Source: Flavobacteriales bacterium (lineage in GTDB: Bacteria > Bacteroidota > Bacteroidia > Flavobacteriales_F > PHOS-HE28). Taken from it: DNA of 64,000 nt. The stretch lies in contig JAHBUL010000014.1 in the NCBI GenBank assembly GCA_019638085.1, positions 4,472-68,471 of the forward strand. Direction: 5' to 3'. Under the pieces are notes generated by a model. That model was not told where the DNA came from. It saw only the letters and a program-made list of their open reading frames with translations, and searched no databases. Shown piece after piece: positions 3,752 to 19,550 of this stretch; the first letter of the stretch is position 1, and every line of letters starts with the position of its first letter. Position numbers and translations under genes: made by a program.

Positions 3752-3870
3752 CGTTGGTCAAGTACCCGAACGCCTTAGCACCTTCACCTGTGATCGCTGG
3801 CCAAAAAACGGTAATGTCACAGGCTGTGTCCGAGTTGCCGATGGCAAGTCCGGGTACCTTTGCGGCCCTC

Positions 3871-6360
3871 ATGCAGATCCGTGTTATTCTACTCTTGTTG
3901 TGTGCTTTGACCTCCGTCCAACTATTGGCCCAACGTGGTCCGGGCGGGTCCAGGTCCAACGGTCAAGTGTATGGTCGGTTGGTGGACGAAAACCGGAAGC
4001 CCGTCCCCTTCGCCAGTGTCAGCATCTTGCTGGGCGATAGTCTTGTAGGAGGCGCCTTGGTGAAGGAGAACGGTGATTTCGATGTACCAAGCCTTCCACT
4101 GGGCACCTTGCACCTGCGCATAGCAGCATTGGGCTATACCACGTTGGAGCAGGACTTCACCCTTACGCGCGAAACCCCCAGTCGCGATATGGGCAATCTG
4201 CATATTGCAGCGGATGCGGTGGTTCTCCAAGCGGCCGAGGTCACGAAGGAGCGTGCCACACAGGTGCTACAGGTGGACCGTAGGGTGTACAATGTGGAGA
4301 AGGACATCAGCATAGCGGGCGGCGATGCAACGGATGTGATGAAGAACATTCCGGGCCTGAGCGTGGATGTGGAAGGCAACGTGGAAATGCGCGGCAAGAG
4401 CCCGATCATTTATGTGGACGGACGGCCGACCACCCTGACGCTGGACCAGATACCCGCCTCAGACATCGAACGCGTGGAGGTGATCACCAATCCCAGTGTG
4501 ATCTTCGACGCGAGCTCCACGGGTGGTATTGTGAACGTGGTGATGAAGAAGACCGTGCGGCCCGGATACAGTGGACAACTTCAGGTGGGTCTGGGTACGG
4601 ACGAACGGTACAATGCGAGCGGCAGCCTACTGATGCGCCAAGGCCGTAGCTCCTTCAATCTCAGCCTCGGCTTTGGCCATGGCTCTCCTTTGGGTTCGGG
4701 GTACAGCAATCGGACAGACCTGGCGGACGGCATGCCGACGGGTTATTTCTTGCAGGACAATACCCGGACCAATGGACGCCTGCGCCAGAATGTACGAATG
4801 AGCTGGGACTATAAGCTGAACGTCCGCAATACGATCAGTCTCATGCAAGGCGTGTATTTCGGTGGTCGCAGTAGCATCGAAGACCAGACCTTCCAGAGCC
4901 TGGATGCAGCTCGGAACCTCATTGGCTCAGGCACTCAGCACAACACCACGGACGGGCATTATGCCAGCTATACCACGCGCGCAGGCTTCATGCGTACGAC
5001 CACTAAGCCCGGCAAGGAATGGAGCACGGATCTCACGTTGAACATCAGCGACCGCGCCTCCCCCTTCACCACCGAGCAGTTCAGCCAAGGAAGCGACATG
5101 ATCTTTCCCGGGCGTAGCTACCAGACGCGTGATGCCAAAGGGAACGATCAGGAATGGACGTGGCAAGCGGACGTATCGGATGCGTATGCCGACAACCGGA
5201 AGCTCGAGTGGGGTTTCAAGGCCAACTACGAGCAGAGCCGCTCCAGCATGGATGTGTCCTTCACGAACGATTCGATGCCCAATTTTCTGCGCGATACGTT
5301 GCTCAGTAATGCCTACCTGATCCAGACCTACGTGAATGCAGCCTATGTGAACTGGAGTGCGAAGCTCACATCGCATTGGTCGCTGCAAACCGGTCTGCGG
5401 TTTGAGCAGAACATCATGGATGCCGAACGCACCGACCGGGGGACTTCCTTCAGCTACAACTACCCCGACGGCTTGGGCGATCTGGGCCGCGTTCTTTTTC
5501 CCGCACTTTACCTGAGTCATAAATGGGATGCGCCGGATGGTAAGCTGCAACGCGAGCTACAGTTCAACGTTTCCCGTAAGGTCAGCCGGCCGAACCATTA
5601 CCAGATGATGCCTTTCATCATGTCCACCGATGCCCGGAGCTATCGGATCGGCAACCCGCTACTACTGCCGGAGATGAGCACCATTTTGGAGGTGAACCAC
5701 CTGCTACCCTTTGGCGATAAGGGCAATTGGCTTTCGTCCCTTTACGGCCGTTTCACCACGGACGTGATCACCAGCTACACCACACCGTTGGAAACCGACC
5801 CGAACATCCTGCTTTCCACGTACGTCAACGGTGATATGAACCAAGGCTTCGGCTGGGAGAATACGGTGAAGCTCACCCTGTGGGAAGGCTTGGAGGCTAC
5901 GGTGAACGGGAACATCCAATGGGTGCAGATCGGCCTTACGCAAAATGGGTCGCCATACACCAACACCGGTACCAACTTCGATGGTAAGGTGAACCTATCC
6001 CAGAAGCTGCCGAAGGGATTCTCGGTACAGGTGAACGCCGACTACACCGGGCCACGCGTGATCCCACAGGGACATACACTGGAGCGCTATTCCTTGGACA
6101 TCTCCGCACGGAAGGAATTGAGCAAAAGCATTTTCCTAACGGCTAGTGCAAACAACATTTTCGATTCGCGGGGCTGGGGTTCCTATACGGAGACGCCCTA
6201 CTTCACGCAGGAGAGCTACCGGAGTTGGGGGAACCGATCCTTCCGTATCTCGGCCACGTGGCGCTTCGGTAAACCGGATGCGCAGTTGTTCCGCAAAAAA
6301 TCCGGACCCATGGAACGCAGTGTGCCGAGCACTAGCGGCGGTGATGGTGGGGGGGAGTGA
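3871..6360 (+). CDS. Outer-membrane beta-barrel protein with an N-terminal carboxypeptidase-regulatory-like domain (TonB-dependent-receptor-like; OMP_b-brl_3 type)
   Basis: Signal peptide MQIRVILLLLCALTSVQLLAQ. A CarbopepD_reg-like stretch (GQVYGRLVDENRKPVPFASVSILL) is followed by a long beta-strand-rich region ending in an aromatic residue. Start is at the ATG at 3871. Confidence 0.7.
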   Translation: MQIRVILLLLCALTSVQLLAQRGPGGSRSNGQVYGRLVDENRKPVPFASVSILLGDSLVGGALVKENGDFDVPSLPLGTLHLRIAALGYTTLEQDFTLTRETPSRDMGNLHIAADAVVLQAAEVTKERATQVLQVDRRVYNVEKDISIAGGDATDVMKNIPGLSVDVEGNVEMRGKSPIIYVDGRPTTLTLDQIPASDIERVEVITNPSVIFDASSTGGIVNVVMKKTVRPGYSGQLQVGLGTDERYNASGSLLMRQGRSSFNLSLGFGHGSPLGSGYSNRTDLADGMPTGYFLQDNTRTNGRLRQNVRMSWDYKLNVRNTISLMQGVYFGGRSSIEDQTFQSLDAARNLIGSGTQHNTTDGHYASYTTRAGFMRTTTKPGKEWSTDLTLNISDRASPFTTEQFSQGSDMIFPGRSYQTRDAKGNDQEWTWQADVSDAYADNRKLEWGFKANYEQSRSSMDVSFTNDSMPNFLRDTLLSNAYLIQTYVNAAYVNWSAKLTSHWSLQTGLRFEQNIMDAERTDRGTSFSYNYPDGLGDLGRVLFPALYLSHKWDAPDGKLQRELQFNVSRKVSRPNHYQMMPFIMSTDARSYRIGNPLLLPEMSTILEVNHLLPFGDKGNWLSSLYGRFTTDVITSYTTPLETDPNILLSTYVNGDMNQGFGWENTVKLTLWEGLEATVNGNIQWVQIGLTQNGSPYTNTGTNFDGKVNLSQKLPKGFSVQVNADYTGPRVIPQGHTLERYSLDISARKELSKSIFLTASANNIFDSRGWGSYTETPYFTQESYRSWGNRSFRISATWRFGKPDAQLFRKKSGPMERSVPSTSGGDGGGE

Positions 6361-6550: not shown

Positions 6551-7525
6551 CTATAGCGGCATCACCTCGAACTTCGGGGAGCCGCGCAACCCTTGTTCAT
6601 CGTAGTAGTCGACGAAGTGCAGCTTGAAGAATTGACCGTCGAGATCCTGTACGATATACACTTGGTTGCTGTACACCTCGTACGTGCCGGTATCAAAGGA
6701 ATAGTCCTTCCAGTCGTAGCCGATGATGTCCTCGTCAGTGCTGAACGGATGAGCGATGGTATCGTTGAGCGACACGCTGGTAAAATCCCCATTCACTTGG
6801 GTCACCCGTGCACCGCTATAACCGTTCACCGTGCCGGTCACCAAATAGGCCAAATAGGGGTCAGGTGCATAGAACTGCTCGGTGTACTGGGTGAACACCA
6901 TGTCATAGCTACCAAACGGCGGAGCTATGGTAACCGTGCTCCCACTGTTGATGCTGAAGTGTGCATAAGGGCGGGCAGGGTCCTTCTGCAGGGTATGGTG
7001 CTGTACATCGGAGCCATCCATGCGGGCAATGCTGAACGCGTATGAGGTGGCATTCACACCGGTCAATTGCAGCTTGCGCAAACCCACCGGCAAACCATTA
7101 GTACCATAGCCGAGATCAAGGATGAATACGGGGAGCTCGCTGCGCCAGTCCTTGAGGGCCACACTGTCGGATCGTCCGTTAGGCAGGTCGATCTTCCATG
7201 TATTTCCGAATCCCGTGGTATCGCTTGGCTGGCTGATATCGGGCTCCATGGCACGATGGGAGCGCATCAAGCGGGCGTAGTTCAACCTCACCTGCCAGCC
7301 ATCCGGGGCGCTCTCGAAGGCGAGATCCCAATCCATCTTGCTGTTCTGTGCCACCACGCTGTAACTGCTGAGGTCGAACCAGAGTTGTTGGTCATAGGCA
7401 GGTCCAACCCGGGCCACACATTCCACGGCATAGCGAGGCTGCTTCGGCACGGGGATCTCGTCCTTCACGCATCCGCTGAAAGCGAGTGCCAACAACACCA
7501 GTCCTATCGTTCCGGAACCTTTCAT
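6551..7525 (-). CDS. HmuY-like heme-binding surface lipoprotein (lipobox LALAFSGC)
   Basis: Lipoprotein signal peptide. It shares the WDLAFE and C-terminal ...DW.xY......YxV....FK..F blocks with the 13740-14981 paralog, a HmuY-family signature. It overlaps the upstream TonB receptor gene by 4 nt. Confidence 0.6.
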   Translation of the reverse strand: MKGSGTIGLVLLALAFSGCVKDEIPVPKQPRYAVECVARVGPAYDQQLWFDLSSYSVVAQNSKMDWDLAFESAPDGWQVRLNYARLMRSHRAMEPDISQPSDTTGFGNTWKIDLPNGRSDSVALKDWRSELPVFILDLGYGTNGLPVGLRKLQLTGVNATSYAFSIARMDGSDVQHHTLQKDPARPYAHFSINSGSTVTIAPPFGSYDMVFTQYTEQFYAPDPYLAYLVTGTVNGYSGARVTQVNGDFTSVSLNDTIAHPFSTDEDIIGYDWKDYSFDTGTYEVYSNQVYIVQDLDGQFFKLHFVDYYDEQGLRGSPKFEVMPL

Positions 7526-9804
7526 AACCGTGTTTCCTTGCTCTTCCCGATGAGGTCCAACGCCAAGCGCACGAAGAGCGTACGGCCGGTGGCGAGCGGT
7601 ACACTTCCGGAACCCGCACCACTATGGGCCCCGCCGTTGCCCAGCGAAGCATTCAGATCGGTGATATTGCCGATGTTCTTGCAACCGATCTGTGCTATTA
7701 GTCGCCTATTGCAGAGTTGCTTGGACACTGACGCATCGGCCATCAGGTAGGATGCGATGCGACCGCGGCCGAGACTGCCATCATCCGTGTAGATATAGCT
7801 CTGCTGCTCGCCTTGGTATTTGGTGAAGAGGTTGATGCTCCACCCCTGCTTTCGCCAATGGCGAGTGGCCTGCAGGTTTACCGCAGGTGAATATTCGTAG
7901 GGGTTGCTACCGATCCGAACACCCACGGTATCGTAGCGCCCCGTGATGGATGTGCCCGCACCGATGGACCAGTGACCGGACTCCCATCCAAGACTGAAGC
8001 TGCCACCGAGCGTGCGGTACTCTCCCACGTTGATGTAGCCATAAAGTGTGCTGCCTTCCTCGGCCAAGGTGATCAGGTTGTGCACCCGGTCATGGAAGCC
8101 GGCGATCTCACCACGCAGCACCCCTTTCTCCAACGCCTTGCGGTAACTGAGCGAGAGGGAGTAGTTATTGGAGGATTCCGCGATCAGATCGGGATTGCCG
8201 TGGATATCATGGTTCACGTCCACGAAATAGAGGTAGAGTTCCTTGAGGGAAGGTGCACGGAAGCCCTCGGCATAGGATCCGCGCAGAGTGAGTGCGGTGT
8301 CCAACTGGAACCGCACATCCACGGAAGGCACCAGTGGTGCATCGTACTGGGTATTGTACGCATAGCGGAATCCCGGCCGGATGATCATGCGGTCCACGGG
8401 TTTCCACTGGGCGCTGACGAACGCGGCATAATCGCCGATCTCCTGATCGGTGCCATCCGCGATACGTTCCCCGGCCCCGGTCTCCAAGTTGAGGTCCATG
8501 CCTACTTCATATCCAAGCCGGGCACTGTCCTTCATGTTTGAGAACGTGCCCCTGATGTTGGTAAGCGTGAAGCGCGAATCATCAGCCTCTCCGGGCACAG
8601 GCCGGGTTTCCATGTTGGTGAGGTCGCGGATCCACATGCTGCGCGTGCGCTGGTAGCGATCGTGCGCCACCAACCCATGGATGCGCTTTCCGTTGCCCAG
8701 GTCGCCGGTCGTGAAGAGCGCATTATCCAACCGTTGGGTGAGGTATTCCGAATCGAATGCGCTTTCATCATAGGGTGCCCGGGGCAAGCCGCGATCGATG
8801 ATGAGGTCCTGCATGAACTCACCCTTGTAATTCAGCGTCCAATTATCATTCAAGGAGTAGCGATAGTTCAACCTTCCGAAATACTGCTCCCTTGGCTTCC
8901 AAGGCTGGTAGCGCGTGGAATCGGCCTCATGCTTCGCAAAATCGTACGTGCTGCTCTGCTCGGGGCTCCATCCCCCGAAATAGTTCCTACCCAACGTGAT
9001 CAACAGGTCGCTTTTTCCGAAGCGCTTGCCGGCAGCCACGGAAAGATTGAGCCTTCCAACCTGCTCCACATAAGAGATAGCCTTCAGCGACGAGGTGTTG
9101 CCACTGTTCTTGCGGGTGATCAGGTTGATGGTACCCGCCAAGGCATTGGTACCGTAGCTCACGCTGAGCGGACCTTCCAATATCTCCACACGATCGATAC
9201 CACTCAGGTCGATCTGGGTAAGGTCGAGATTTCCATCTTGCCGTCCTATGATGGGCACGCCGTCCACGAGGATCTTCACGTTCTCTCCACCCAAGCCACG
9301 CATGCTCAGCGATGTACCCAGCACATTGTCCTGCGAAAGCCGCATGTTCAATTCCTGGCCCAGCACATCTCCGAGGTTCTGTGCCGCCATCCGCTGTATC
9401 TGTTCCGCATTGATCACGTGCATACGTTGCACGGCCCGGTCGGTACTGGTGGGCTTGTACTGGCCCGTTACCACCAGTTCATCCAGGTTGAAGAATTGTG
9501 CCCTTTGCAAAGAGTAGGTACATGGAGATAGGTTGTAGACGGTATCGATCACCGGATCATAGCCGATGAAATCGATCCGGATGGCCAAGCCCCCTTGCAC
9601 ATCAGCGGCTTGCGCCGGAATGGTGATGGTCCCGTCGGGGCCTGAGACCACAACGCCTTTCGCCGTGGTCTTCAGAACATCCCATTGCACATGTGCGTAA
9701 GGCACGGCCTCCTTGGTGTCCGCCTCCCGTACCGTTAGCGGAACTTGCGCACATACGGCAGCCGAGCTGCTCAGGGCGAGGAGGGCTGCTAGGGTGCGGA
9801 TCAT
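7522..9804 (-). CDS. TonB-dependent outer-membrane receptor, HmuR-like heme receptor by context
   Basis: Signal peptide, a CarbopepD_reg-like N-domain, a TonB plug (DELVVTGQYKPTS ... RVEILEGPLSVSYGTNALAGTINLITRK) and a long beta-barrel ending in a C-terminal aromatic. The gene sits inside the heme operon. Confidence 0.85.
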   Translation of the reverse strand: MIRTLAALLALSSSAAVCAQVPLTVREADTKEAVPYAHVQWDVLKTTAKGVVVSGPDGTITIPAQAADVQGGLAIRIDFIGYDPVIDTVYNLSPCTYSLQRAQFFNLDELVVTGQYKPTSTDRAVQRMHVINAEQIQRMAAQNLGDVLGQELNMRLSQDNVLGTSLSMRGLGGENVKILVDGVPIIGRQDGNLDLTQIDLSGIDRVEILEGPLSVSYGTNALAGTINLITRKNSGNTSSLKAISYVEQVGRLNLSVAAGKRFGKSDLLITLGRNYFGGWSPEQSSTYDFAKHEADSTRYQPWKPREQYFGRLNYRYSLNDNWTLNYKGEFMQDLIIDRGLPRAPYDESAFDSEYLTQRLDNALFTTGDLGNGKRIHGLVAHDRYQRTRSMWIRDLTNMETRPVPGEADDSRFTLTNIRGTFSNMKDSARLGYEVGMDLNLETGAGERIADGTDQEIGDYAAFVSAQWKPVDRMIIRPGFRYAYNTQYDAPLVPSVDVRFQLDTALTLRGSYAEGFRAPSLKELYLYFVDVNHDIHGNPDLIAESSNNYSLSLSYRKALEKGVLRGEIAGFHDRVHNLITLAEEGSTLYGYINVGEYRTLGGSFSLGWESGHWSIGAGTSITGRYDTVGVRIGSNPYEYSPAVNLQATRHWRKQGWSINLFTKYQGEQQSYIYTDDGSLGRGRIASYLMADASVSKQLCNRRLIAQIGCKNIGNITDLNASLGNGGAHSGAGSGSVPLATGRTLFVRLALDLIGKSKETRL

Positions 9805-9830
9805 GGATGACTACGGAGTTGTGGGACTGA

Positions 9831-10898
9831 TCAGGCGATGCGTAGCTCGTTCTCCACTTCTTTCACCAGGCCCGCCCACTCAGGAAGTTCGGGGATGCCG
9901 GGCTTGCGCTTTCCGAAGAACTGCACCACCAACACACCGTTCTTGTCGAAGCATTCGATGGCGGTTACCATGCCATCCACGCTCGGCTTGCGCACCACCC
10001 AGCTCTCGGTGATCGCTCCTTCGCGCACGTGCATGTTGAAATCGGGATCTATCACATTGAACCATTCGGGCACATCCACCAGATTCGTTACGGTACCGGT
10101 ATGGATCTGGATCATTCCCTTGTTGCCAATGAAGACCATGATGGGAAACTGCTGCTTGGCTGCACGCGTCACGATCTCCCGCATGGCGTTGTTGCTCAGC
10201 TTGGTGCTGAATCCTTCGGGCGCCAATCGCAGGGCTTGTGTGCGGCTAACGTGGTATTTGCGCGTCATGCCATAGAAGTCGTGCGTATCCTTCATTGCTT
10301 TCCACTCGGCACGGAAGCCTTCGGCATCGATCTCGGCATCGGGCTTCTCCGTCGGCTCCTCAGGCCAGGGCTTCACTGCTTGCACTTTGCTCTGGTCATC
10401 ATTGCGGTACTGCTCGATCAAGCCTTCAAAAGCGGTCACATTGCTTTCCGGCAACAGGTAGACCTTGTGTACGGCCTCCCCATCCTTGGCGAAGAACTGC
10501 AAGCTGCGGCGCGGGCCATTCTTGCCATCTTCCACCACGGCGAAGGCCGAGTTCCAAGGCCCCCAGAAGATGCGCAGATCGATATCCTCGCCCACGAACA
10601 GTCCCACGTGCTGCTCGGTGAGGGACGGGTTCAGGTATTCCCCGTTGCGCTCATGCACGGCATCATTGTTTCGTGAAAGGGCCATTACGCGCCCCAGCTT
10701 AGGGATCTCCGCCATCAGCCCACGAAAGTCCGGAAGTAGCCGCGTAACTCCGTCACCGATTCGTAATACCAGCAATTCCACTTCGCTTACCCCCAATTCG
10801 GTGGCAGCATTGCGGATGCGTGTCTTCGGCTTGGCGGCCATGAGTTCATCAAAACGTTGTTGCAGATCGGCGTTGGTCACGGTCGTGGTTTCCATCAT
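9831..10898 (-). CDS. hemS: HemS/ChuS/HmuS-family hemin-degrading or heme-chaperone protein
   Basis: About 355 aa with the two-repeat architecture typical of ChuS/HemS/ShuS. It lies immediately downstream of the ABC importer genes. Confidence 0.7.
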   Translation of the reverse strand: MMETTTVTNADLQQRFDELMAAKPKTRIRNAATELGVSEVELLVLRIGDGVTRLLPDFRGLMAEIPKLGRVMALSRNNDAVHERNGEYLNPSLTEQHVGLFVGEDIDLRIFWGPWNSAFAVVEDGKNGPRRSLQFFAKDGEAVHKVYLLPESNVTAFEGLIEQYRNDDQSKVQAVKPWPEEPTEKPDAEIDAEGFRAEWKAMKDTHDFYGMTRKYHVSRTQALRLAPEGFSTKLSNNAMREIVTRAAKQQFPIMVFIGNKGMIQIHTGTVTNLVDVPEWFNVIDPDFNMHVREGAITESWVVRKPSVDGMVTAIECFDKNGVLVVQFFGKRKPGIPELPEWAGLVKEVENELRIA

Positions 10899-10938
10899 TT
10901 TTGTCGGGTTGATGCCGGGTCGGGAAGATCTTCCGTTC

Positions 10939-11832
10939 CTAGCGGTCGTGTGTGTTTTGATGCGCGAGATCCCGCGCGTTTACAGGAGAAAAATCCCGGG
11001 TCCCCGGGTAAGTGTCCACGGTGCTTTCCAGCTCGCCCTTGCGGAATGATCCATCGAAAAACACCAGCGGGCATGAATGGCAAGGATGCGGCATCACTTG
11101 GGCGTTCAATCCATAGGCCTCGGTAAGGATGGGCGCGGTGAGCACCTCGTCCGGTGCGCCGGAAGCAGTAATGCGAGAGGCCTTCATCAGGATGATGCGA
11201 TCAGCATACTGAGCCGCCATGTTCACATCGTGCAGCACGGCCAGCACGCAATGGCCTTCCTTGGCGAAGGACCGGGCGGCGTGCATCAGCGCGTGTTGGT
11301 GGCGGATATCGAGGTCGTTCAGCGGCTCATCCAGCAGGAGAATGCGTGTGCCGGGTGCCGCATTGTCCACCTGGGTGAAGGCGCGTGCGATATGTGTGCG
11401 CTGCTGTTCGCCTCCCGAAGTGGTGTCGAGCACTCGGGCGCGCAAGGGATCCAGCAATGCGGTTTGCACGGCGCGGTCCACTGCTTCCAGATCACTGGCG
11501 GCCGGGGTATTACCATAGTATGGGTAACGCCCCATGCGCACCACCTCTTCCACGGTGAAGGCAAGGCCCATGGCATTGTGTTGGCCGAGCACGGATCGGC
11601 TCTTTGCCAGTTCCTGCGGATCCCTGTCCTGCATAGCAGCACCGTTCCATTGGATACTTCCTTGCTGAAGTGGAAGGTCTCCAGCGAGCAGCCGCAGAAG
11701 TGTGCTTTTGCCTGCCCCGTTCGGGCCCAGCAGCACAACCAGTTCACCGGGTTCCACAGCGAAGGTCACATCGTGCAACAAGCACTTGCGATCGCGCTGG
11801 GCGTGCCATGTAAGTTGATGGACCTTCAACAT
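10939..11832 (-). CDS. hmuV: Hemin ABC transporter ATP-binding protein (HmuV/FecE family) with a ~40-aa C-terminal extension
   Basis: Walker A GPNGAGKST, an ABC signature and Walker B ILLLDEP. The C-terminal extension contains HPCHSCP, a Cys-Pro motif. Confidence 0.85.
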   Translation of the reverse strand: MLKVHQLTWHAQRDRKCLLHDVTFAVEPGELVVLLGPNGAGKSTLLRLLAGDLPLQQGSIQWNGAAMQDRDPQELAKSRSVLGQHNAMGLAFTVEEVVRMGRYPYYGNTPAASDLEAVDRAVQTALLDPLRARVLDTTSGGEQQRTHIARAFTQVDNAAPGTRILLLDEPLNDLDIRHQHALMHAARSFAKEGHCVLAVLHDVNMAAQYADRIILMKASRITASGAPDEVLTAPILTEAYGLNAQVMPHPCHSCPLVFFDGSFRKGELESTVDTYPGTRDFSPVNARDLAHQNTHDR

Positions 11833-11833
11833 T

Positions 11834-12880
11834 TCAGGCGAATTGCAGGTTGCGTTTGCCGCGGATCAGGAGATAGAGGAAAACAGGCGCACCACACAAG
11901 GCCGTGATCACGCCAATAGGTACTTCGGCAGGTGCGGCCACGGTGCGTGCAATGGTATCGGCCAATACGAGCAGCACGGCACCTCCCAGTGCGGAGGCGG
12001 GCAGTAGGAAGCGATTATCAGCCCCTCCGGCCAAGCGCAGCATGTGCGGCACCACCAATCCCACAAAGCCGATCACGCCACACAACGCCACCGTGGCCCC
12101 CACCATCAGGGCGGTGCAAAGCACCACGCGGCGCTTCATCGCCTCGGCATTCACCCCGATGTGGCGGGCTTGGTCCTCGCCAAGCGCCAGCGCGTTCAAC
12201 GGCTTGTGCATCCGGAGCAGGATGATCAATGGGATGGGCACGGCGATCAGCAGCACCCATACGGCATTGAGGTCTGCGCCGCCCAAGCTGCCGAGCATCC
12301 AGAACACGATGCTGCGCAATTGGGCATCGTTGGCGGTGAAGGTGAGCAGGCCGGTGAGTGCTCCGGTGAGCGCGGCAATGGCCACCCCGGCCAGCAGCAT
12401 GGCGGCCACGTTGGTACGGCGTCCTTCGCGCGCAATGCCGAAAACAAGAAAGGTGGTGCCCACGGCACCGGCAAAGGCCGCCAATGGTAGGGCCAGGGTA
12501 CTGGCCCATCCTCCGAAGACCACGTTGGCCCAATGCGTCATCACGATGGCCACTGCCGCCATCAACGCGGCACCGGAGGAGATACCGATGATGGAAGGGT
12601 CCGCCAGCGGGTTGCGGAAGAGTGCCTGCATGGCGGTACCACCTGCTGCCAGTGCGGCACCTGCCAGCAGTGCCACCATGATGCGGGGCATGCGAACGAC
12701 CATCAGCACGGCCTGTTGCATATCGGTGTGTTCGCCCCAGGAAAAACCCAGGCCAGCGGCAATGGACGAGAGGAAGGCACCGGGTGCGATGTGGACCGCA
12801 CCTGCTTGTACAGCCACCAGTACCGCAAGGATCAGCAAGGTCCAGAGGACCGCGATGATGATGCGCTGCTTGACGCTCAT
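11834..12880 (-). CDS. hmuU: Hemin/siderophore ABC permease (FecCD family)
   Basis: About 348 aa, polytopic and Gly/Ala-rich FecCD-type. It overlaps hmuT by 4 nt. Confidence 0.85.
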   Translation of the reverse strand: MSVKQRIIIAVLWTLLILAVLVAVQAGAVHIAPGAFLSSIAAGLGFSWGEHTDMQQAVLMVVRMPRIMVALLAGAALAAGGTAMQALFRNPLADPSIIGISSGAALMAAVAIVMTHWANVVFGGWASTLALPLAAFAGAVGTTFLVFGIAREGRRTNVAAMLLAGVAIAALTGALTGLLTFTANDAQLRSIVFWMLGSLGGADLNAVWVLLIAVPIPLIILLRMHKPLNALALGEDQARHIGVNAEAMKRRVVLCTALMVGATVALCGVIGFVGLVVPHMLRLAGGADNRFLLPASALGGAVLLVLADTIARTVAAPAEVPIGVITALCGAPVFLYLLIRGKRNLQFA

Positions 12881-13734
12881 GGCATGGTTGCCGCGCGGAG
12901 GTCTTTGTTCAATTCGGTCACGGCTTCGCCCACTCGCGGGCCGAATCCGGCCATTACCACGGGTTGCAGTGTTATGAATGCTTGATCGCGGCCTGCGCTG
13001 GTGCTGGCCATTCCCGGCACACGCATCAGCGCCTCATTTCCTTGCAGGTGTTCCTGACCGGTATTGAAGAGCAGCACCACATCCGGATCAGCAGCCACTA
13101 AGGCTTCGGGGGTCAGGGGTTTGAAGTCCGAGAAGCCGGAGATGGCATTGGTACCCCCGGCCAGCCCGATCAATGCTTGGATCGGCGTTCCCTCACCCGC
13201 CACCAGCAAGGTGCCCGCACCGCGAGCGTAAATGAAGAGGACCTTGGGAGCCGGCTGCAATGGCACTACAGCCGCAAGGCCCTCTTCGATGGCATCCACG
13301 ATCTTACGGGACTCCACAGTACGATGCAGCGAATCAGCGATCCGGATGATCAATTCCTTTGTGCCGGCAATGTTGTTTCGGGGCGCGAAGAGCATCAATC
13401 GGATGCCAGCTTGGCGGATCTGGCCCTCCACGGCAGGGTCCAACTGCCCCTCGTTCGCCAGCACCAGGTCCGGCGAAAGCGATAGGATGCCTTCCGCCCG
13501 GATGGACCGGTCGTGCCCCAGCTTCGGCAAGGCATTCACGGCCTCCGGATACTTGCTCGTCACGTCCGTCCCGACGATACGATCTTCCAGCCCGATGGCG
13601 GCGACGATCTCAGTAAGCGTACCGTTCAGAGTAATGATCCGCTGCGGCTCTACCTGTACTGTGGCTGTTTCTACAGTAGGAGCCGTGCAACCGGTCGCCA
13701 AGGCGAGCAGAAATAACCCAAGAAGCGCGCGCAT
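12877..13734 (-). CDS. hmuT: Periplasmic heme-binding lipoprotein of the ABC importer (HmuT/ChuT-like, class III substrate-binding protein)
   Basis: Lipobox LALATGC. The size (~285 aa) and context fit a HmuT/TroA-fold binding protein. Confidence 0.75.
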   Translation of the reverse strand: MRALLGLFLLALATGCTAPTVETATVQVEPQRIITLNGTLTEIVAAIGLEDRIVGTDVTSKYPEAVNALPKLGHDRSIRAEGILSLSPDLVLANEGQLDPAVEGQIRQAGIRLMLFAPRNNIAGTKELIIRIADSLHRTVESRKIVDAIEEGLAAVVPLQPAPKVLFIYARGAGTLLVAGEGTPIQALIGLAGGTNAISGFSDFKPLTPEALVAADPDVVLLFNTGQEHLQGNEALMRVPGMASTSAGRDQAFITLQPVVMAGFGPRVGEAVTELNKDLRAATMP

Positions 13735-13739
13735 CCGGG

Positions 13740-14981
13740 TTAGTCGATCACCAGCTTAGCGGTGGTATTTAAGTGGTTGGCCTCAATGCGGATCACATAC
13801 ACTCCCTTGGAGAGAGCGCTTACGTCGAGGCTGCGGTTGCTGAGGCCGGTAAGTCCGCTCCAGTGCTGTTCCAGCATTTGCTGGCCCGTGGTATTGAACA
13901 CGCGGACGGTGCCTTCGGAAGCGGGAATGTCCACGATCACTTGAGCTTGTCCATTGCTGACCGGGTTCGGATATACCAGCAGGGTGCCTTGTTGCACAAC
14001 ATTTTCCCCGATCCCCACAGTGCTAACCATCTCTTGGGTGAAGGTCATGTTTCCGTTCCCGCTGCCACCGTAGCCGGTGAAGATCACCTTCCAGATGTTG
14101 CCGGGTATGTCCTTCACGAAGTAGGTGCGATCAGCGGCGATGGTATAGACACCTTGGCCCATATCATAGGTTTTCCAGTCGGAGCCGATGATGTTCATAT
14201 GCGTACTGAACGTACCGGGGAACCATTCGGCATCAGCCGTAGGTACTCCATCTACTTGCAGCGCGGTCACGTTCTTGTTCTGGAGCACCCCGCTCACCGG
14301 ATAGGCCGTGGGAACAAAGCCGGTGTACTTGGTAAAGAGCAGGTCCCAATTCACGGTGAGCGGCTCACGGTCCAGCGTGGAATTGGAAGCGAAGGAGTAA
14401 TAACCGAAGTTCTTACCGGTGAATCCGGACTTGGTCAGTGTAGCATCATGGCTGTCCGTACCGTCCAAATTGGCATAGGTGAAGTCATACACGCCATTGG
14501 CCAAGGAGTTGATGCGGAGCTTCCTCCACGTGCTGTCCGGGGACATGATCGCATAGATGCGCGTTCCTGCGATCACGTGTGTAGCTTGGTTGTAGTTGCC
14601 CCAGCCCACGTTGAATCCTTGTGGATCATCCAAATTATTGCCATGGTTCAATGCACTTACGGTCCATGCAGTGTCGGCATTTTCCACACGTGTCCAGTTG
14701 TCCACGTCCACCGTCACCAAGTTATCCCACTGGGCAATGGCCGTGGGAGTTTCATATACCACCAAGCCCTTGGCCGTGTTCACGCGAATGGAGGATGAAA
14801 AACCCACCATTTCAAAGGCCAAGTCCCATTCTGCCAAGGGCGCACTGTCCACTTCTCCGTTCAGGAGGCTGTACCACACCTGCTCACTATTGGCCGCAGC
14901 GGTGGAAACGGTTACCGATGTTTGGGCCTGCATGGGCGCTATCAGGAGCACAGTGAAGAGCGTGAGGAGTATTTTTTTCAT
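13740..14981 (-). CDS. HmuY-like domain protein fused to a T9SS C-terminal sorting domain (candidate secreted or surface hemophore)
   Basis: Signal peptide MKKILLTLFTVLLIAPMQAQ with the ATG at 14981. The N-terminal ~300 aa align block-wise with the 6551-7525 lipoprotein (EWDLAFE; IGSDWKTYDMGQGVYTIAADRTYFVKDIPGNIWKVIF). The C-terminus (LLVYPNPVSNGQAQV...GVYVIRIEANHLNTTAKLVID) is a Por_Secre_tail/T9SS type-A C-terminal domain. It is the first gene of the operon. Confidence 0.65.
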   Translation of the reverse strand: MKKILLTLFTVLLIAPMQAQTSVTVSTAAANSEQVWYSLLNGEVDSAPLAEWDLAFEMVGFSSSIRVNTAKGLVVYETPTAIAQWDNLVTVDVDNWTRVENADTAWTVSALNHGNNLDDPQGFNVGWGNYNQATHVIAGTRIYAIMSPDSTWRKLRINSLANGVYDFTYANLDGTDSHDATLTKSGFTGKNFGYYSFASNSTLDREPLTVNWDLLFTKYTGFVPTAYPVSGVLQNKNVTALQVDGVPTADAEWFPGTFSTHMNIIGSDWKTYDMGQGVYTIAADRTYFVKDIPGNIWKVIFTGYGGSGNGNMTFTQEMVSTVGIGENVVQQGTLLVYPNPVSNGQAQVIVDIPASEGTVRVFNTTGQQMLEQHWSGLTGLSNRSLDVSALSKGVYVIRIEANHLNTTAKLVID

Positions 14982-15155
14982 GATGCCGCAAAGGACCGGA
15001 CCAAGTGGTGGTTCCACCATACCCTGATCGTGGTATTCAGCCTCCCACTTTGTCATGGAAGTGTCCAGTGAAACGCTCCTCCGGACCCCCAAGAGCTGTG
15101 AACGTCGGCAAACGCGCAGATGCATTCCTTAACATTGTGCTTCCGCCCATCGAAC

Positions 15156-16520
15156 ATGCGCCGCCGTACCCTTGGAACCCTTGTCCTACTGGGCTTTATG
15201 AGCCTGGCGGGCGTGGTGTTCACACAAGTGATGTGGCTGAAGCGTGCCCAACAGTACGAGCATGAGCAGGTGGCCTTGCAACAGCAACAACAGCAGCAGT
15301 TGGACAAGCAGTTCAACGACCGGGTCACCATAGCGCTCACCGAGGTCACGGAGCGGATCCTTTCCATCACCAAGGACCCCAGCGACCTCTTCGATGCCGT
15401 GAAGCAGGAACGGCCCAACTATTTCGCTGTCACCATCAATGACACCATCCACCCCTACTTACTGGAAGCCTTGCTGGAGCAGGAGTTCAAGCGGCGCAAC
15501 ATCAACGACGATTTCGAGTACGGGATCTACGATTGCTTCACCGACAGCATCGTGTACGGCAACTACGTAAGCCTGAGCGACAGCGTGCGCACCGATAGTG
15601 CACGGCACAGCCAGCTGCTCAAGTTGGACAAGGACGGGCACTACTTCGGGGTCTATTTCCCACGCCGGACCAGCTCCCTTTGGACGCCAGGTCGTGAAGG
15701 GACCATCAATTGGATCTATCCGGCCGTGGTCTCCTTCATCATGTTCGCCTTCTTTGCGTACAGCATGTGGGTGATCCTCCGCCAGAAGCGCTTGGGCGAG
15801 ATGAAAAACGACTTCATCGGCAATATGACCCACGAACTGAAGACGCCGATCAGCACCATAGCGCTCAGCAGTGAAGTGCTCTCCGATCCGGAGATCATCA
15901 AGGAACCCGAACGCCTACGGAACTACGCACGGATCATCCACACCGAGAACGAACGGCTGCGGCAACAAGTGGAACGTGTTCTTCAGCTAGCCACCTTGGA
16001 TAATGGCGGTAGCGATCTGCACATGGAAGCATTGGACATCCATGAACTTCTGGAGGATACGCGGAATTCCTTCACAGTACTGCTCCAGGAACGTTTCGGC
16101 ACTTCCTCCATGAACCTGCAGGCCACCGATCACTTCGTAAAAGGCGATCGCATCCATGTGGGCAACATCCTGTTCAACCTAGTGGACAATGCCGTGAAGT
16201 ATTCCAAGGATAAACCCGTAGTGGAGATCAGTACCCGCAATGAGCATGGCAACCTGCTGATCACCGTATCGGACAAGGGCATCGGCATGCGCAAGGAGGA
16301 CCTCCGCAACATCTTCGAACGATTCTTCCGGATCCATACGGGGAATGTCCATGATGTGAAGGGATTCGGACTTGGCCTGCATTATGTAGCGGAAATGGTG
16401 CGCGCCCATGGTGGCAAGGTTCATGTGGAAAGCACCTATGGACAGGGAAGCACCTTTACACTTGTATTCCCGGCGATACGAAAACCGGAAAATCAAAAGC
16501 CAGATGAAGAACGAGACTGA
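15156..16520 (+). CDS. Sensor histidine kinase (HisKA + HATPase), divergent from the heme operon
   Basis: H-box HELKTPISTI plus N/G1/G2 boxes (NLVDNAVKYS, DKGIGM, GFGLGL). It has an N-terminal TM segment and a poly-Q linker (QQQQQQQ). The first in-frame start is at 15120 and the second at 15156. Confidence 0.8.
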   Translation: MRRRTLGTLVLLGFMSLAGVVFTQVMWLKRAQQYEHEQVALQQQQQQQLDKQFNDRVTIALTEVTERILSITKDPSDLFDAVKQERPNYFAVTINDTIHPYLLEALLEQEFKRRNINDDFEYGIYDCFTDSIVYGNYVSLSDSVRTDSARHSQLLKLDKDGHYFGVYFPRRTSSLWTPGREGTINWIYPAVVSFIMFAFFAYSMWVILRQKRLGEMKNDFIGNMTHELKTPISTIALSSEVLSDPEIIKEPERLRNYARIIHTENERLRQQVERVLQLATLDNGGSDLHMEALDIHELLEDTRNSFTVLLQERFGTSSMNLQATDHFVKGDRIHVGNILFNLVDNAVKYSKDKPVVEISTRNEHGNLLITVSDKGIGMRKEDLRNIFERFFRIHTGNVHDVKGFGLGLHYVAEMVRAHGGKVHVESTYGQGSTFTLVFPAIRKPENQKPDEERD

Positions 16521-17217
16521 ACCGGGGGCCAAAGGAACCCTGCTGCTGGTGGAAGATGACGAGAACCTGGGCTTCGTTGTGCAGGACTCGTTGAGACGAC
16601 GCGGCTATGCCGTGCATTTATTCCGTGATGGCAAGGAGGGCCTACAGCATTTCAACCGGAATAAGTATGACCTCTGCCTGTTGGATGTCATGCTTCCCCA
16701 TAAGGATGGCCTGAGCCTGGCAGAGGATATCCGCCTTACCGACAACCGCACGCCCATCATCTTCCTAACGGCCAAAAGCCAGACCGAGGACCGCATCGCC
16801 GGTTTCAAGGCCGGTGGCGACGACTATATCACCAAGCCTTTCAGCCAAGAGGAGCTTGTGTTGCGCATAGAAGCCATCCTGCGGCGCACACAGAACAAAG
16901 GGCAGGATCAACGTGATCGCGATGTGTTCCACCTCGGCGATTTCGTCTTCGACGATAAGAACAAGACACTCACCCACCCGGAAGAAACGCGACGCCTCAC
17001 CAAGAAGGAAGCAGCGGTGCTCCGGCTGTTGAGCATGCATCAGGACCAAGTGCTTCCCCGAGAGCTGTTACTGAACATGGTCTGGGGTGATGACAGTTAT
17101 TTTCTTGGGCGCAGCCTCGATGTGTTCATCAGCCGCCTTCGGAAATACCTGCGCTACGACGAGAAGGTGCGCATTGTGAATGTACACGGCGTGGGTTTCA
17201 AGATGCAGGTGGATTAG
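16504..17217 (+). CDS. OmpR-family response regulator (REC + winged-helix)
   Basis: LLLVEDDENL...D52-like LLDVMLP...KPF. The C-terminus has an OmpR winged helix. The ATG at 16504 overlaps the HK stop by 17 nt. Confidence 0.85.
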   Translation: MKNETEPGAKGTLLLVEDDENLGFVVQDSLRRRGYAVHLFRDGKEGLQHFNRNKYDLCLLDVMLPHKDGLSLAEDIRLTDNRTPIIFLTAKSQTEDRIAGFKAGGDDYITKPFSQEELVLRIEAILRRTQNKGQDQRDRDVFHLGDFVFDDKNKTLTHPEETRRLTKKEAAVLRLLSMHQDQVLPRELLLNMVWGDDSYFLGRSLDVFISRLRKYLRYDEKVRIVNVHGVGFKMQVD

Positions 17218-17954: not shown

Positions 17955-19550
17955 TCAGTCGACGTTATCGTGCAGGAACGGATTGTTCCGGCGCAGTTCC
18001 ACTTGGCGCTCACCCATTTCGTTGCTGCCTTCGCTGAGGGTGTATCGGCTCACGTTGCTATCGGTACTATGTGGTGTTTCACTCAGCAGCACATTGCGAC
18101 GCTTGTAGGCTGGCTCCCGTTCCATTTCAGCCAATCCGTTGGGGGTCCGCAGGCGCATGTTCACCTCACGCATATGGGCCAAACGATCCTCTGCGCGGGC
18201 CTGATGTTCTGCTGGTGAGAGATGGGCATGGGTCGGCTCATGGCCAGCGCTCCCATGAGCTACCGGTGGTTGGTGTTCATTGTCATGACCTTGCGGATGA
18301 CCTTCATTCAGGTCATGTACCACCTTCTGCTCTTCCTCGGGTTCCGGGCTGGGTTCCACGCGGGAACGTTCCATCTGGACCGGCTCCTCGAACTGAAGCC
18401 GGGACTGCTCTTTCACCGGTGCTTCCACCTGCTTGATATAGGGTTCCACACTAGGGGCTTCAGGTGCTTTTGCCGAAGGCACCGACATCTGCACCGGATT
18501 GGTGATCGGCGAGGTGATCATGGTCGGCAATTCGCTGTTCAGATCGGTCACCTTTTTCTCGGGCACGCGCTGCTCCAAGGTGGAGGTGAGCTCGTTCTGG
18601 CTGAAGCCCGTGGCGATGACGGTAACGCGGATCTTCTCTCCCAAAGCCTCATCGGTGCAATAGCCCCAGATCACATCGGCGGTGCTGCCAGCGGCATCCT
18701 GTATGTGGTCGGTGATCTCGGTCATCTCGTCCATGGAGATGGTCTTGGTACCGAGCCCTACATTGAGCAACACATACTTGGCACCTTTGATATCGTTGTC
18801 GTTGAGCAAAGGTGAAGCAAGTGCATCCTCAGCGGCACGAATGGCACGATCCTCTCCCTCGGCCTCGGCCATGCCCAGGATGGCCACGCCGCTGCCGGTC
18901 ATAACAGTGCGCACGTCCTCGAAATCCACGTTCACGGTTCCGGTCTTGGTGATGATCTCGGCAATGCCACGTGCAGCAGTGGTAAGCACGTTGTCGGCAT
19001 GGGCGAAGGCCTCGCTGATGTCGAGGTTACCGTAAAGGTCGCGCAGGCGATCGTTGTTGATCACCAGCAAGGTATCCACAGCTTGGCGCATCTCTTCAAT
19101 GCCTTCGGCGGCCTGGTTCTTCCGCTTGCGACCCTCCCATTGGAAAGGCATGGTGACAATACCCACGGTGAGGATGCCCATGTCCCGAGCGATACGCGCG
19201 ATCACGGGTGCGGCACCGGTTCCGGTGCCACCGCCCATGCCAGCGGTAACAAAGAGCATCTTGGTGCGGCTGCTGAGGAGTTCACGGATCTCCTCGATGC
19301 TTTCCTGCGCGGCAGCGTTACCACGTTCTGGGATGCTGCCTGCACCCAAGCCTTCGGTAAGGGCTGCACCAAGCTGAAGCTTCACCGGGATCGGGCTCAT
19401 ATCGAGTGCTTGCTTGTCGGTATTGCAAATGATGAAATCAACACCCACGATGCCTTGGGTGTGCATATGGTTCACGGCATTGCTACCGCCTCCACCCACA
19501 CCGATCACTTTGATGATGGAGGAGAGTTCGGTGGGAAGGTCGAATTTCAT
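17955..19550 (-). CDS. ftsZ: Cell division protein FtsZ with a long C-terminal linker
   Basis: GVGGGGSNAV, the T7 loop and the NTDKQAL motif. A ~200-aa C-terminal low-complexity linker ends in NNPFLHDNVD. Confidence 0.95.
   Translation of the reverse strand: MKFDLPTELSSIIKVIGVGGGGSNAVNHMHTQGIVGVDFIICNTDKQALDMSPIPVKLQLGAALTEGLGAGSIPERGNAAAQESIEEIRELLSSRTKMLFVTAGMGGGTGTGAAPVIARIARDMGILTVGIVTMPFQWEGRKRKNQAAEGIEEMRQAVDTLLVINNDRLRDLYGNLDISEAFAHADNVLTTAARGIAEIITKTGTVNVDFEDVRTVMTGSGVAILGMAEAEGEDRAIRAAEDALASPLLNDNDIKGAKYVLLNVGLGTKTISMDEMTEITDHIQDAAGSTADVIWGYCTDEALGEKIRVTVIATGFSQNELTSTLEQRVPEKKVTDLNSELPTMITSPITNPVQMSVPSAKAPEAPSVEPYIKQVEAPVKEQSRLQFEEPVQMERSRVEPSPEPEEEQKVVHDLNEGHPQGHDNEHQPPVAHGSAGHEPTHAHLSPAEHQARAEDRLAHMREVNMRLRTPNGLAEMEREPAYKRRNVLLSETPHSTDSNVSRYTLSEGSNEMGERQVELRRNNPFLHDNVD

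Follow-up and report, generated by a model that had tools for sequence, protein, structure and literature searches.

Knowledge of heme uptake in Bacteroidota comes almost entirely from anaerobic species of the mouth and gut, which use HmuY and HmuR together with the dechelatase HmuS. In the Porphyromonas gingivalis hmuYRSTUV locus, HmuS is a CobN-like dechelatase, HmuT is ATPase-like, HmuU resembles MotA/TolQ/ExbB, and no HemS is encoded (PMC12094164), while HmuV is an orphan (PMC12094164, PMC12583661). In Flavobacterium psychrophilum, HfpY and HfpR bind and use heme, HfpY at 1:1; their genes respond to iron scarcity by induction and, under this condition, are required for growth on heme or hemoglobin (PMC9331221). 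The HmuY protein of F. columnare (C6N29_01035) consists of an HmuY_like domain and a Por_Secre_tail and is reported to be secreted by the T9SS (type IX secretion system) (PMC9618737). The annotated hemin cluster of Elizabethkingia comprises hmuTUV, hmuS/HemS, an S-adenosylmethionine methyltransferase gene, and an iron-regulated protein gene (PMC5602931, PMC4494045, PMC4026382). Its hemin ATP-binding cassette (ABC) transporter genes are strongly induced under peroxide stress, alongside iron-uptake genes (PMC4494045). Here I analyze a 64,000-nucleotide stretch (the window) of contig JAHBUL010000014.1 in assembly GCA_019638085.1. It belongs to an uncultured, fairly GC-rich (~57%) Flavobacteriales bacterium, in which seven adjacent genes seem to encode a complete heme route leading from the cell exterior into the cytoplasm: two HmuY-like proteins (HmuY1 and HmuY2, or Y1 and Y2), an ABC importer (HmuT, HmuU, and HmuV, or TUV), a HemS protein, and a TonB-dependent receptor.

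The seven open reading frames (ORFs) are co-oriented on the minus strand and cover 6551-15125 as called, or 6551-14981 after correction of one start codon (Table 1). In the order of transcription, the junctions computed from the coordinates are +5, -4, +1, +40, +26, and -4 nucleotides (nt), the two negative values being 4-nt overlaps of hmuU with hmuT and of the receptor gene with the HmuY2 gene. The tight junctions and the conserved gene order suggest co-transcription of all seven genes. The seven-gene cluster, a putative operon, is real and conserved, and it most likely serves to carry heme from the cell surface into the cytoplasm. The first gene had been called as a 461-residue ORF (13740-15125), which reaches too far at the 5′ end. 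HmuY1 has its signal peptide MKKILLTLFTVLLIAPMQAQ beginning at Met49 of that ORF, its homologs are 413-414 amino acids (aa) long, and the supposed extension contains a promoter-like region that is conserved; thus, the shorter ORF was adopted. Each of the seven products was assigned to a family by Pfam and NCBIfam profile searches. A sequence-only reading of this DNA had proposed co-oriented genes with 0-40-nt gaps or overlaps, a T9SS-sorted HmuY paralog at the 5′ end and a lipoprotein paralog at the 3′ end, a TonB-dependent receptor, a binding-protein-dependent ABC importer, and a HemS/ChuS gene for the 355-aa protein. All the families it named were recovered. Both HmuY paralogs pass PF14064, with a matching T9SS signal (TIGR04183) and lipobox, respectively, and neither of them nor the 355-aa protein fell into an unrelated family. 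The gaps also agree, and only the 5′ limit of the operon had to be moved, from 15125 to 14981.

Table 1. Features of the heme-uptake locus and its neighborhood (positions in the window).
Feature	Position	Strand	Assignment
Gene 1, HmuY1	13740-14981	-	413 aa; HmuY-like, T9SS-sorted; PF14064 29.0 bits (gathering cut-off 27)
HmuY1 C-terminal domain (CTD), ~residues 333-413	~13743-13985	-	T9SS type A CTD; TIGR04183 46.6 bits (cut-off 23); Por_Secre_tail PF18962 49.8 bits
Gene 2, HmuT	12877-13734	-	Heme-type cluster-A periplasmic binding protein; Peripla_BP_2 105 bits
Gene 3, HmuU	11834-12880	-	FecCD-family ABC permease; FecCD 304.7 bits
Gene 4, HmuV	10939-11832	-	ABC ATPase; ABC_tran; NF010068 'heme ABC transporter ATP-binding protein' (equivalog) 280.6 bits (cut-off 261)
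Gene 5, HemS	9831-10898	-	HemS/PhuS/ChuS-type; two HemS/ChuX domains, PF05171 244.5 bits
Gene 6, receptor	7522-9804	-	TonB-dependent; Plug and TonB_dep_Rec barrel
Gene 7, HmuY2	6551-7525	-	324-aa HmuY-like lipoprotein; HmuY PF14064 57.4 bits (cut-off 27)
18-bp palindrome ATACC-NN-GATC-NN-GGTAT	15019-15036	.	Candidate operator; from upstream-region alignment of window and relatives
TCCTTTG	14989-14995	-	Candidate -7 promoter box; ~7 nt before ATG, ~23 nt after palindrome
Sensor kinase	15156-16520	+	HisKA/HATPase (Pfam); divergent from gene 1
OmpR-type response regulator	ORF 16408-17217	+	Pfam; true start probably near 16530
868-aa receptor-like gene	3754-6360	+	CarboxypepD_reg, Plug, OMP_b-brl_3; convergent, meets last operon gene
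FtsZ	17955-19550	-	Run of large co-oriented ORFs beyond, to ~32000

How does this locus compare with the described systems? Like the Hmu system of P. gingivalis, it combines an HmuY-family protein with a TonB-dependent receptor, and both HmuY and HmuY2 are lipoproteins of the HmuY fold (PMC12094164). Unlike in that system, the remaining products carry Peripla_BP_2, FecCD, ABC_tran, and HemS domains, and no CobN- or MotA/TolQ/ExbB-like domain was found in the seven products. There are also two HmuY-like proteins here, one of them a T9SS cargo, and the order is Y1 ... receptor-Y2 rather than Y-R. The Hfp system of F. psychrophilum (hfpR-THC0290_1813-hfpY) is another Flavobacteriales case in which the receptor gene precedes an HmuY-family gene, there on one iron-regulated transcript (PMC9331221). 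However, it has a single HmuY-like protein, a DoxX-family gene between the receptor gene and hfpY, and neither an ABC importer nor HemS in the operon. The F. columnare HmuY shares the domain architecture of HmuY1, a match by architecture alone, and was described as a lone gene. Elizabethkingia, of the Weeksellaceae, also has an ABC-HemS block within Bacteroidota, but its HmuY gene and hemin receptor are reported from other loci. The proteobacterial loci (phuR/phuSTUVW of Pseudomonas, hemRSTUV/hmuRSTUV of Yersinia, shu of Shigella, and chu of Escherichia coli) likewise encode a receptor, a binding protein, a FecCD permease with its ATPase, and a cytoplasmic HemS/PhuS/ChuS protein. They differ from the present locus, which has HmuY-type surface hemophores of the Bacteroidota kind (with T9SS and lipoprotein export signals) and a lipoprotein HmuT with His in place of Tyr; its gene order is different and its receptor is not close to HemR or ShuA. 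The searchable literature yielded no account of an operon fused in this way, nor of the trio Y1-receptor-Y2, double-domain HmuY-like proteins, or a His-type HmuT.

In HmuY1, the Sec signal peptide is followed by an HmuY-like region (~300 aa) made up of two halves and by a CTD of T9SS type A. Its AlphaFold model has a predicted local distance difference test score (pLDDT) of 90.8 and matches HmuY-family structures with a Foldseek probability of 1.0, and the modeled CTD superimposes on the NucA CTD in a T9SS translocon structure (8glk_D) with a template modeling (TM) score of 0.79. HmuY2, whose model has a pLDDT of 91.8, is 99% identical to a protein of a Flavobacteriales metagenome-assembled genome (MAG) in NCBI (P0001), which makes the source organism closely related to deposited MAGs; for HemS, an exact-sequence search gave no match. 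The all-beta HmuY fold is found in these HmuY-like proteins. The lipobox Cys19 of HmuY2 is invariant in the family alignment and reads C19-V-K-D-E-I, against a family consensus of G-C-x-K-E-E. Since the optimal form of the Bacteroidota surface lipoprotein export signal is C-X-K-(D/E)2-X after the lipobox Cys (PMC5080379), the V-K-D-E following Cys19 fits this signal, and HmuY2 is predicted to be a lipoprotein exposed at the cell surface.

Neither protein is a single-domain lipoprotein of about 190-220 aa. Both have two halves, HmuY1 is a T9SS cargo and not a lipoprotein, and the HmuY-like region of each paralog is ~300 aa in length as compared with ~190 aa in the characterized HmuY proteins. 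Homology between the two extends from end to end (hhalign 99.9%). When the halves were isolated, the C-terminal ones passed the Pfam HmuY model (41.1 bits for HmuY2 and 29.6 bits for HmuY1), while the N-terminal half of HmuY2 reached a sub-threshold 21 bits and that of HmuY1 had no match. In hhalign comparisons between halves, the two halves of HmuY1 were aligned with a probability of 85.5%, and the C-terminal half of HmuY2 was aligned with the N-terminal half of HmuY1 with a probability of 93.6%. Judging from these profile comparisons, and with moderate confidence, the HmuY-like region of both paralogs is probably a tandem duplication of an HmuY-like domain.

The inner-membrane part of the locus resembles heme importers: a heme-type ATPase, a FecCD permease, and a cluster-A binding protein are encoded together. 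The best solved relatives of HmuT are all heme-binding proteins, namely RhuT (1.6e-48), BhuT, Yersinia pestis HmuT (6e-44), PhuT, ShuT, and HutB, whereas BtuF was matched at only 2e-7, far more weakly than the heme-binding relatives (1e-48 to 1e-25). HmuT is a predicted lipoprotein (lipobox Cys16) reading C16-T-A-P-T, without the surface-export signal. At His74 (codon ~13513-13515) it has G-H-D-R where three printed alignments show G-Y-x-R in RhuT, BhuT, and Y. pestis HmuT. His74 is invariant in nine Bacteroidota homologs, including those of the distant loci L006, L011, and L014, and HmuT probably binds heme through this residue. HmuV (297 aa) has a tail of ~35 residues past its match to the heme ATPase model, which ends at residue 259. 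This tail is poorly conserved; tblastn alignments in relatives stop at residues 271-295. HemS gave end-to-end alignments with PhuS (4mf9, 8.7e-92), HemS (2j0p, 1.7e-69), and ChuS (4cdp, 2e-60) in the PDB. Besides the tandem HemS/ChuX domains, the proximal His and the conserved Arg are present: His206 is aligned with the first His of the PhuS HHFH segment and with the His of Yersinia HemS, and Arg109 with the conserved Arg of the D-L-R motif. HemS is presumably a cytoplasmic heme-binding or heme-degrading protein.

Is this gene order common among relatives? In a genome scan with HemS, the seven-gene order was found to be identical in five Flavobacteriales MAGs (L001-L005; 65-91% protein identity). 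The same scan revealed one Flavobacteriaceae MAG with TUV-HemS only. Look-ups of more remote homologs placed the seven-gene order also in the distant L011, whose HemS is labeled Chitinophagales, and in L014, and showed loci with hemS alone (L012/13), a locus with the layout Y1-HemS-small ORF-receptor-Y2 (L010), and loci with Y1-receptor-Y2 (L007, L008/9, L015, and L016). L007, L015, and L016 share the response regulator-kinase/Y1 context of the window without the ABC/HemS block, and L015 and L016 keep the ftsZ flank as well. I also performed a metagenome scan with the HmuY1 alignment, in which the best 80 loci were reduced to 68 by dereplication, 58 of them being classifiable with architecture profiles built from this clade. 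The layout Y1-receptor-Y2 accounts for 42 of the 58 loci, 10 of which have a presumed additional gene separating Y1 from the receptor, and Y1-T-U-V-HemS-receptor-Y2 for nine (~16%; four complete and five cut by a contig end). Y1-HemS-receptor-Y2 was found in four and receptor-Y2-Y1 in three. The conserved core consists of the two HmuY-like proteins and the receptor. Since most relatives carry Y1-receptor-Y2 only, the ABC/HemS block is a recurrent minority variant.

Where it is present, the block always lies between Y1 and the receptor, and it is present or absent between close relatives. In neighbor-joining trees of Y1, the receptor, Y2, and HemS (midpoint-rooted, without support values), the seven-gene loci fall in the outgroup and in a crown clade, with three-gene loci between them. 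This placement, together with L010 having hemS alone at the same position, favors an old seven-gene layout followed by repeated loss of TUV-HemS rather than gain. In evolutionary terms, the locus consists of the outer-membrane module Y1-receptor-Y2, which is widespread, and of a block of four inner-membrane and cytoplasmic genes (TUV-HemS) placed between Y1 and the receptor.

Some relatives have additional genes at these junctions. A small ORF of 105-108 aa lies between hemS and the receptor gene in L010 (L010:11076-11393) and in L011 (L011:11065-11391, DUF6686), where the window has the 26-nt gap. L007 has a second TonB-dependent receptor gene (L007:5443-7656), an unrelated one, between Y1 and the cognate receptor. 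A gap of ~1-3 kb was seen at the same Y1/receptor position in ten dereplicated metagenome loci (including L025, L051, L061, L064, L065, and L091). In L014, a Cofac_haem_bdg (PF04187) gene directly follows HmuY2 (L014:14311-15165), a further heme-related neighbor that backs the substrate assignment.

When the regions upstream were aligned for the window and related loci, an 18-bp palindrome emerged; relative to the start codon of Y1, its nearer edge is ~38 nt and its far edge ~55 nt upstream. It occurs once in the window, even when two mismatches are allowed. In L001-L005 and L015, the palindrome is retained at positions -53 to -56 relative to the start of Y1. In other loci it precedes hemS, at -53 in L010 (L010:9948) and at -66 before the stand-alone hemS of L012/L013 (both 9935). 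Since it is kept before Y1 and before a hemS that starts its own unit, the palindrome behaves like the operator of a heme-related regulon and looks like a candidate for one. Downstream of it, L001-L005, L010, and L015 share the conserved block GGTCCTTTGC. The consensus of the Bacteroidota -7 box is TAnnTTTG. The TCCTTTG motif of the window is a candidate for this box; in its place, the AT-richer loci L014 and L011 have TATATTTG and TATCTTTG, respectively, which fits the Bacteroidota box. If TCCTTTG is the -7 box, the leader would be very short. The divergent kinase/response regulator pair is syntenic with Y1 in L001-L005, L007, L015, and L016, with or without the ABC/HemS block, and is absent beside the distant seven-gene loci L011 and L014. 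It is possible that this two-component system regulates the operon. The true start of the response regulator is probably near 16530 because its ORF as called overlaps the kinase ORF by 113 nt. Riboswitch control was also considered and is unsupported, as no Rfam family was found in or before the operon; with the threshold at E<=1, the one match across operon and leader was a small nucleolar RNA attributable to chance, and no cobalamin riboswitch was detected.

Several observations weigh against this account of a complete heme route. The first concern heme coordination by the HmuY-like proteins. The known axial heme ligands are His134 and His166 in P. gingivalis HmuY and a Met/Met pair in Tfo. 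Equivalents of His134/His166 could not be placed, since profile-to-PDB alignments of the full proteins and of the isolated C-terminal domain reach the terminal strands only. The family alignment of HmuY2 contains no invariant His, while HmuY1 has an invariant His135, located in the N-terminal half, and a Met at position 274 of the family consensus. It might be, then, that heme is the substrate but that the HmuY-like proteins are lids of the receptor or adhesins docking hemoproteins, without coordinating heme, and that the receptor takes heme directly. Beyond the untraceable ligands, this would accord with their length (~1.6 times that of characterized HmuY proteins, with an extra N-terminal half) and with the low full-length TM-scores to solved HmuY structures. 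However, the HmuY fold is clearly present, ligand sets vary within the family, and Y1, the receptor, and Y2 co-occur strictly in at least 42 loci. Deletion of hmuY in F. columnare gave no growth or virulence phenotype (PMC9618737), whereas HfpY binds heme 1:1 in spite of its strong divergence (PMC9331221). A role without heme coordination is therefore rather unlikely, and the HmuY-like proteins are treated below as putative heme scavengers.

The second set concerns expression. No Fur-box-like sequence was recognized. A sigma-70 promoter scan, which is unsuited to Bacteroidota promoters, gave fewer matches than shuffled sequence and none at the ends of the operon. The ABC/HemS block and the outer-membrane genes might be expressed separately and be merely adjacent, without forming a single functional transcription unit. 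The block is absent from most of the related loci, hemS or TUV-hemS stands alone in L006 and L012/13, the palindrome directly before hemS in L010 means that hemS can have its own control site, gaps of 40 and 26 nt flank hemS in the window, and F. psychrophilum makes separate hfpY transcripts (PMC9331221). On the other hand, the junctions are tight, two of them being 4-nt overlaps, the only palindrome in the window stands before Y1, and the gene order is kept across distant lineages. A scan for intrinsic terminators also found four sites, not above the 6.9 expected by chance, and none at the ends of the operon. Separate expression is thus improbable, and one seven-gene unit is retained as the preferred reading.

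The third set concerns the substrate. The top NCBIfam matches of the receptor are the TonB-hemin and hemoglobin/transferrin subfamilies, both below cut-off (TIGR01785, 125.1 bits against 316.85; TIGR01786, 120.5 bits against 323.75). By sequence, its best solved relatives are CirA and BtuB, which are not heme receptors. In the plug, His129 is not conserved; of the ten other loci, four have Arg or Glu instead. The label of putative heme receptor (HmuR/HfpR-like) therefore rests mainly on context. The receptor contains the motif F515-R-A-P ... H532 ... N537-P-D-L, in which FRAP (515-518) and His532 are invariant in 11 sequences, compared among these loci only, and NPDL (537-540) is kept in close relatives only. 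HmuT, in turn, has no canonical Tyr heme ligand (G-Y-x-R). It is nevertheless very unlikely that the operon imports a tetrapyrrole other than heme (a corrinoid, a non-iron metalloporphyrin, or protoporphyrin): although the best NCBIfam matches of HmuU are BtuC models (283 bits, below cut-off), the receptor also matches TonB-B12 (116 bits), HmuT matches BtuF weakly and lacks the Tyr ligand of its best-matching solved heme-binding relatives, and the heme ligands of HmuY are not traceable in the alignments, HmuV passes a heme-specific equivalog model, the heme-binding proteins match HmuT far better than BtuF does, His is itself a common heme ligand, a HemS/PhuS protein with the heme-ligand His is encoded inside the operon, and neither a cobalamin riboswitch nor another Rfam family was found in or upstream of it.

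The origin of the ABC/HemS block was also assessed. The GC content is 0.54-0.64 across the operon and 0.53-0.60 in the flanks, so that the composition is unremarkable, and among the 120 best relatives of HemS every named protein is from Bacteroidota. Since FtsZ and the ORFs following it adjoin the operon, and likewise in L015 and L016, the operon lies in a housekeeping (ftsZ/dcw) neighborhood and not in an island. On these three observations, a recent horizontal import from Proteobacteria was rejected. On the same side as FtsZ in the window, L015 and L016 have FtsA and FtsZ, and L016 also has a Mur ligase and MurG. On the other side, the convergent receptor-like gene is syntenic in L001-L003, L005, L007, L015, and L016 and has no palindrome upstream. 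The term 'proteobacterial-type', applied to the importer and HemS in the sequence-only reading, is acceptable only as an analogy with characterized systems, while no sign of import was seen and HemS/HmuTUV homologs are abundant in Flavobacteriales and Chitinophagales MAGs. The contrast drawn there with the Porphyromonas hmu locus was correct (PMC12094164), an ABC importer and HemS standing in place of that module. The proposed comparison of gene neighborhoods showed that the order recurs, in L001-L005, L011, L014, and nine metagenome loci. The claim of a different solution to heme uptake holds insofar as the Porphyromonas-type module is missing here, but the arrangement is shared by relatives, and both a T9SS-secreted HmuY and hmuTUV-hmuS had already been published.

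From homology and gene context, the most likely route is the following. Under heme or iron limitation, transcription would start from a promoter ~10 nt before gene 1 (region ~14989-15036). The palindromic operator would overlap the upstream part of this promoter, and control would probably respond to heme or iron through a dimeric regulator, to which the adjoining two-component system may add. HmuY1 would be exported by Sec and then by the T9SS, and, released or attached to the surface, would scavenge heme in the manner of a hemophore. HmuY2, on the surface beside the receptor, would hand heme to it, and the receptor, driven by TonB, would bring heme into the periplasm. The periplasm-facing lipoprotein HmuT would then take heme, probably via His74, to an HmuU2V2 ABC importer. 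In the cytoplasm, the HemS/PhuS-type protein may take heme via His206 and either degrade it for iron or pass it to other proteins.

What does this locus add? Automatic annotation already gives each gene its correct name in public MAGs, and a characterized relative exists for every functional part. The new element is the combination of known parts in one putative operon. A bolder proposal, which is possible but on balance doubtful, is that the Y1-receptor-Y2 trio captures heme at the outer membrane in a manner that forms an unrecognized class, found in aerobic Flavobacteriales and Chitinophagales of the environment. Two tandem-domain HmuY-like proteins, one secreted and one anchored, would act as hemophores that relay heme in two steps to one receptor, with an optional His-ligated HmuT/ABC importer and HemS, and all of these, including the stand-alone hemS, would be under a dedicated regulator binding ATACC-N8-GGTAT. 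If both the trio class and the regulator are as proposed, this would be a previously undescribed heme regulon in Bacteroidota. No current model is overturned by the locus. It indicates that HmuY-type surface capture is combined with the classical ABC/HemS route in uncultured aerobic Flavobacteriales, many of which stem from activated sludge and freshwater. The double-domain HmuY-like proteins and the His-for-Tyr putative heme-binding protein are concrete and inexpensive targets for biochemistry, and the candidate operator could help to predict heme-responsive genes in these genomes.

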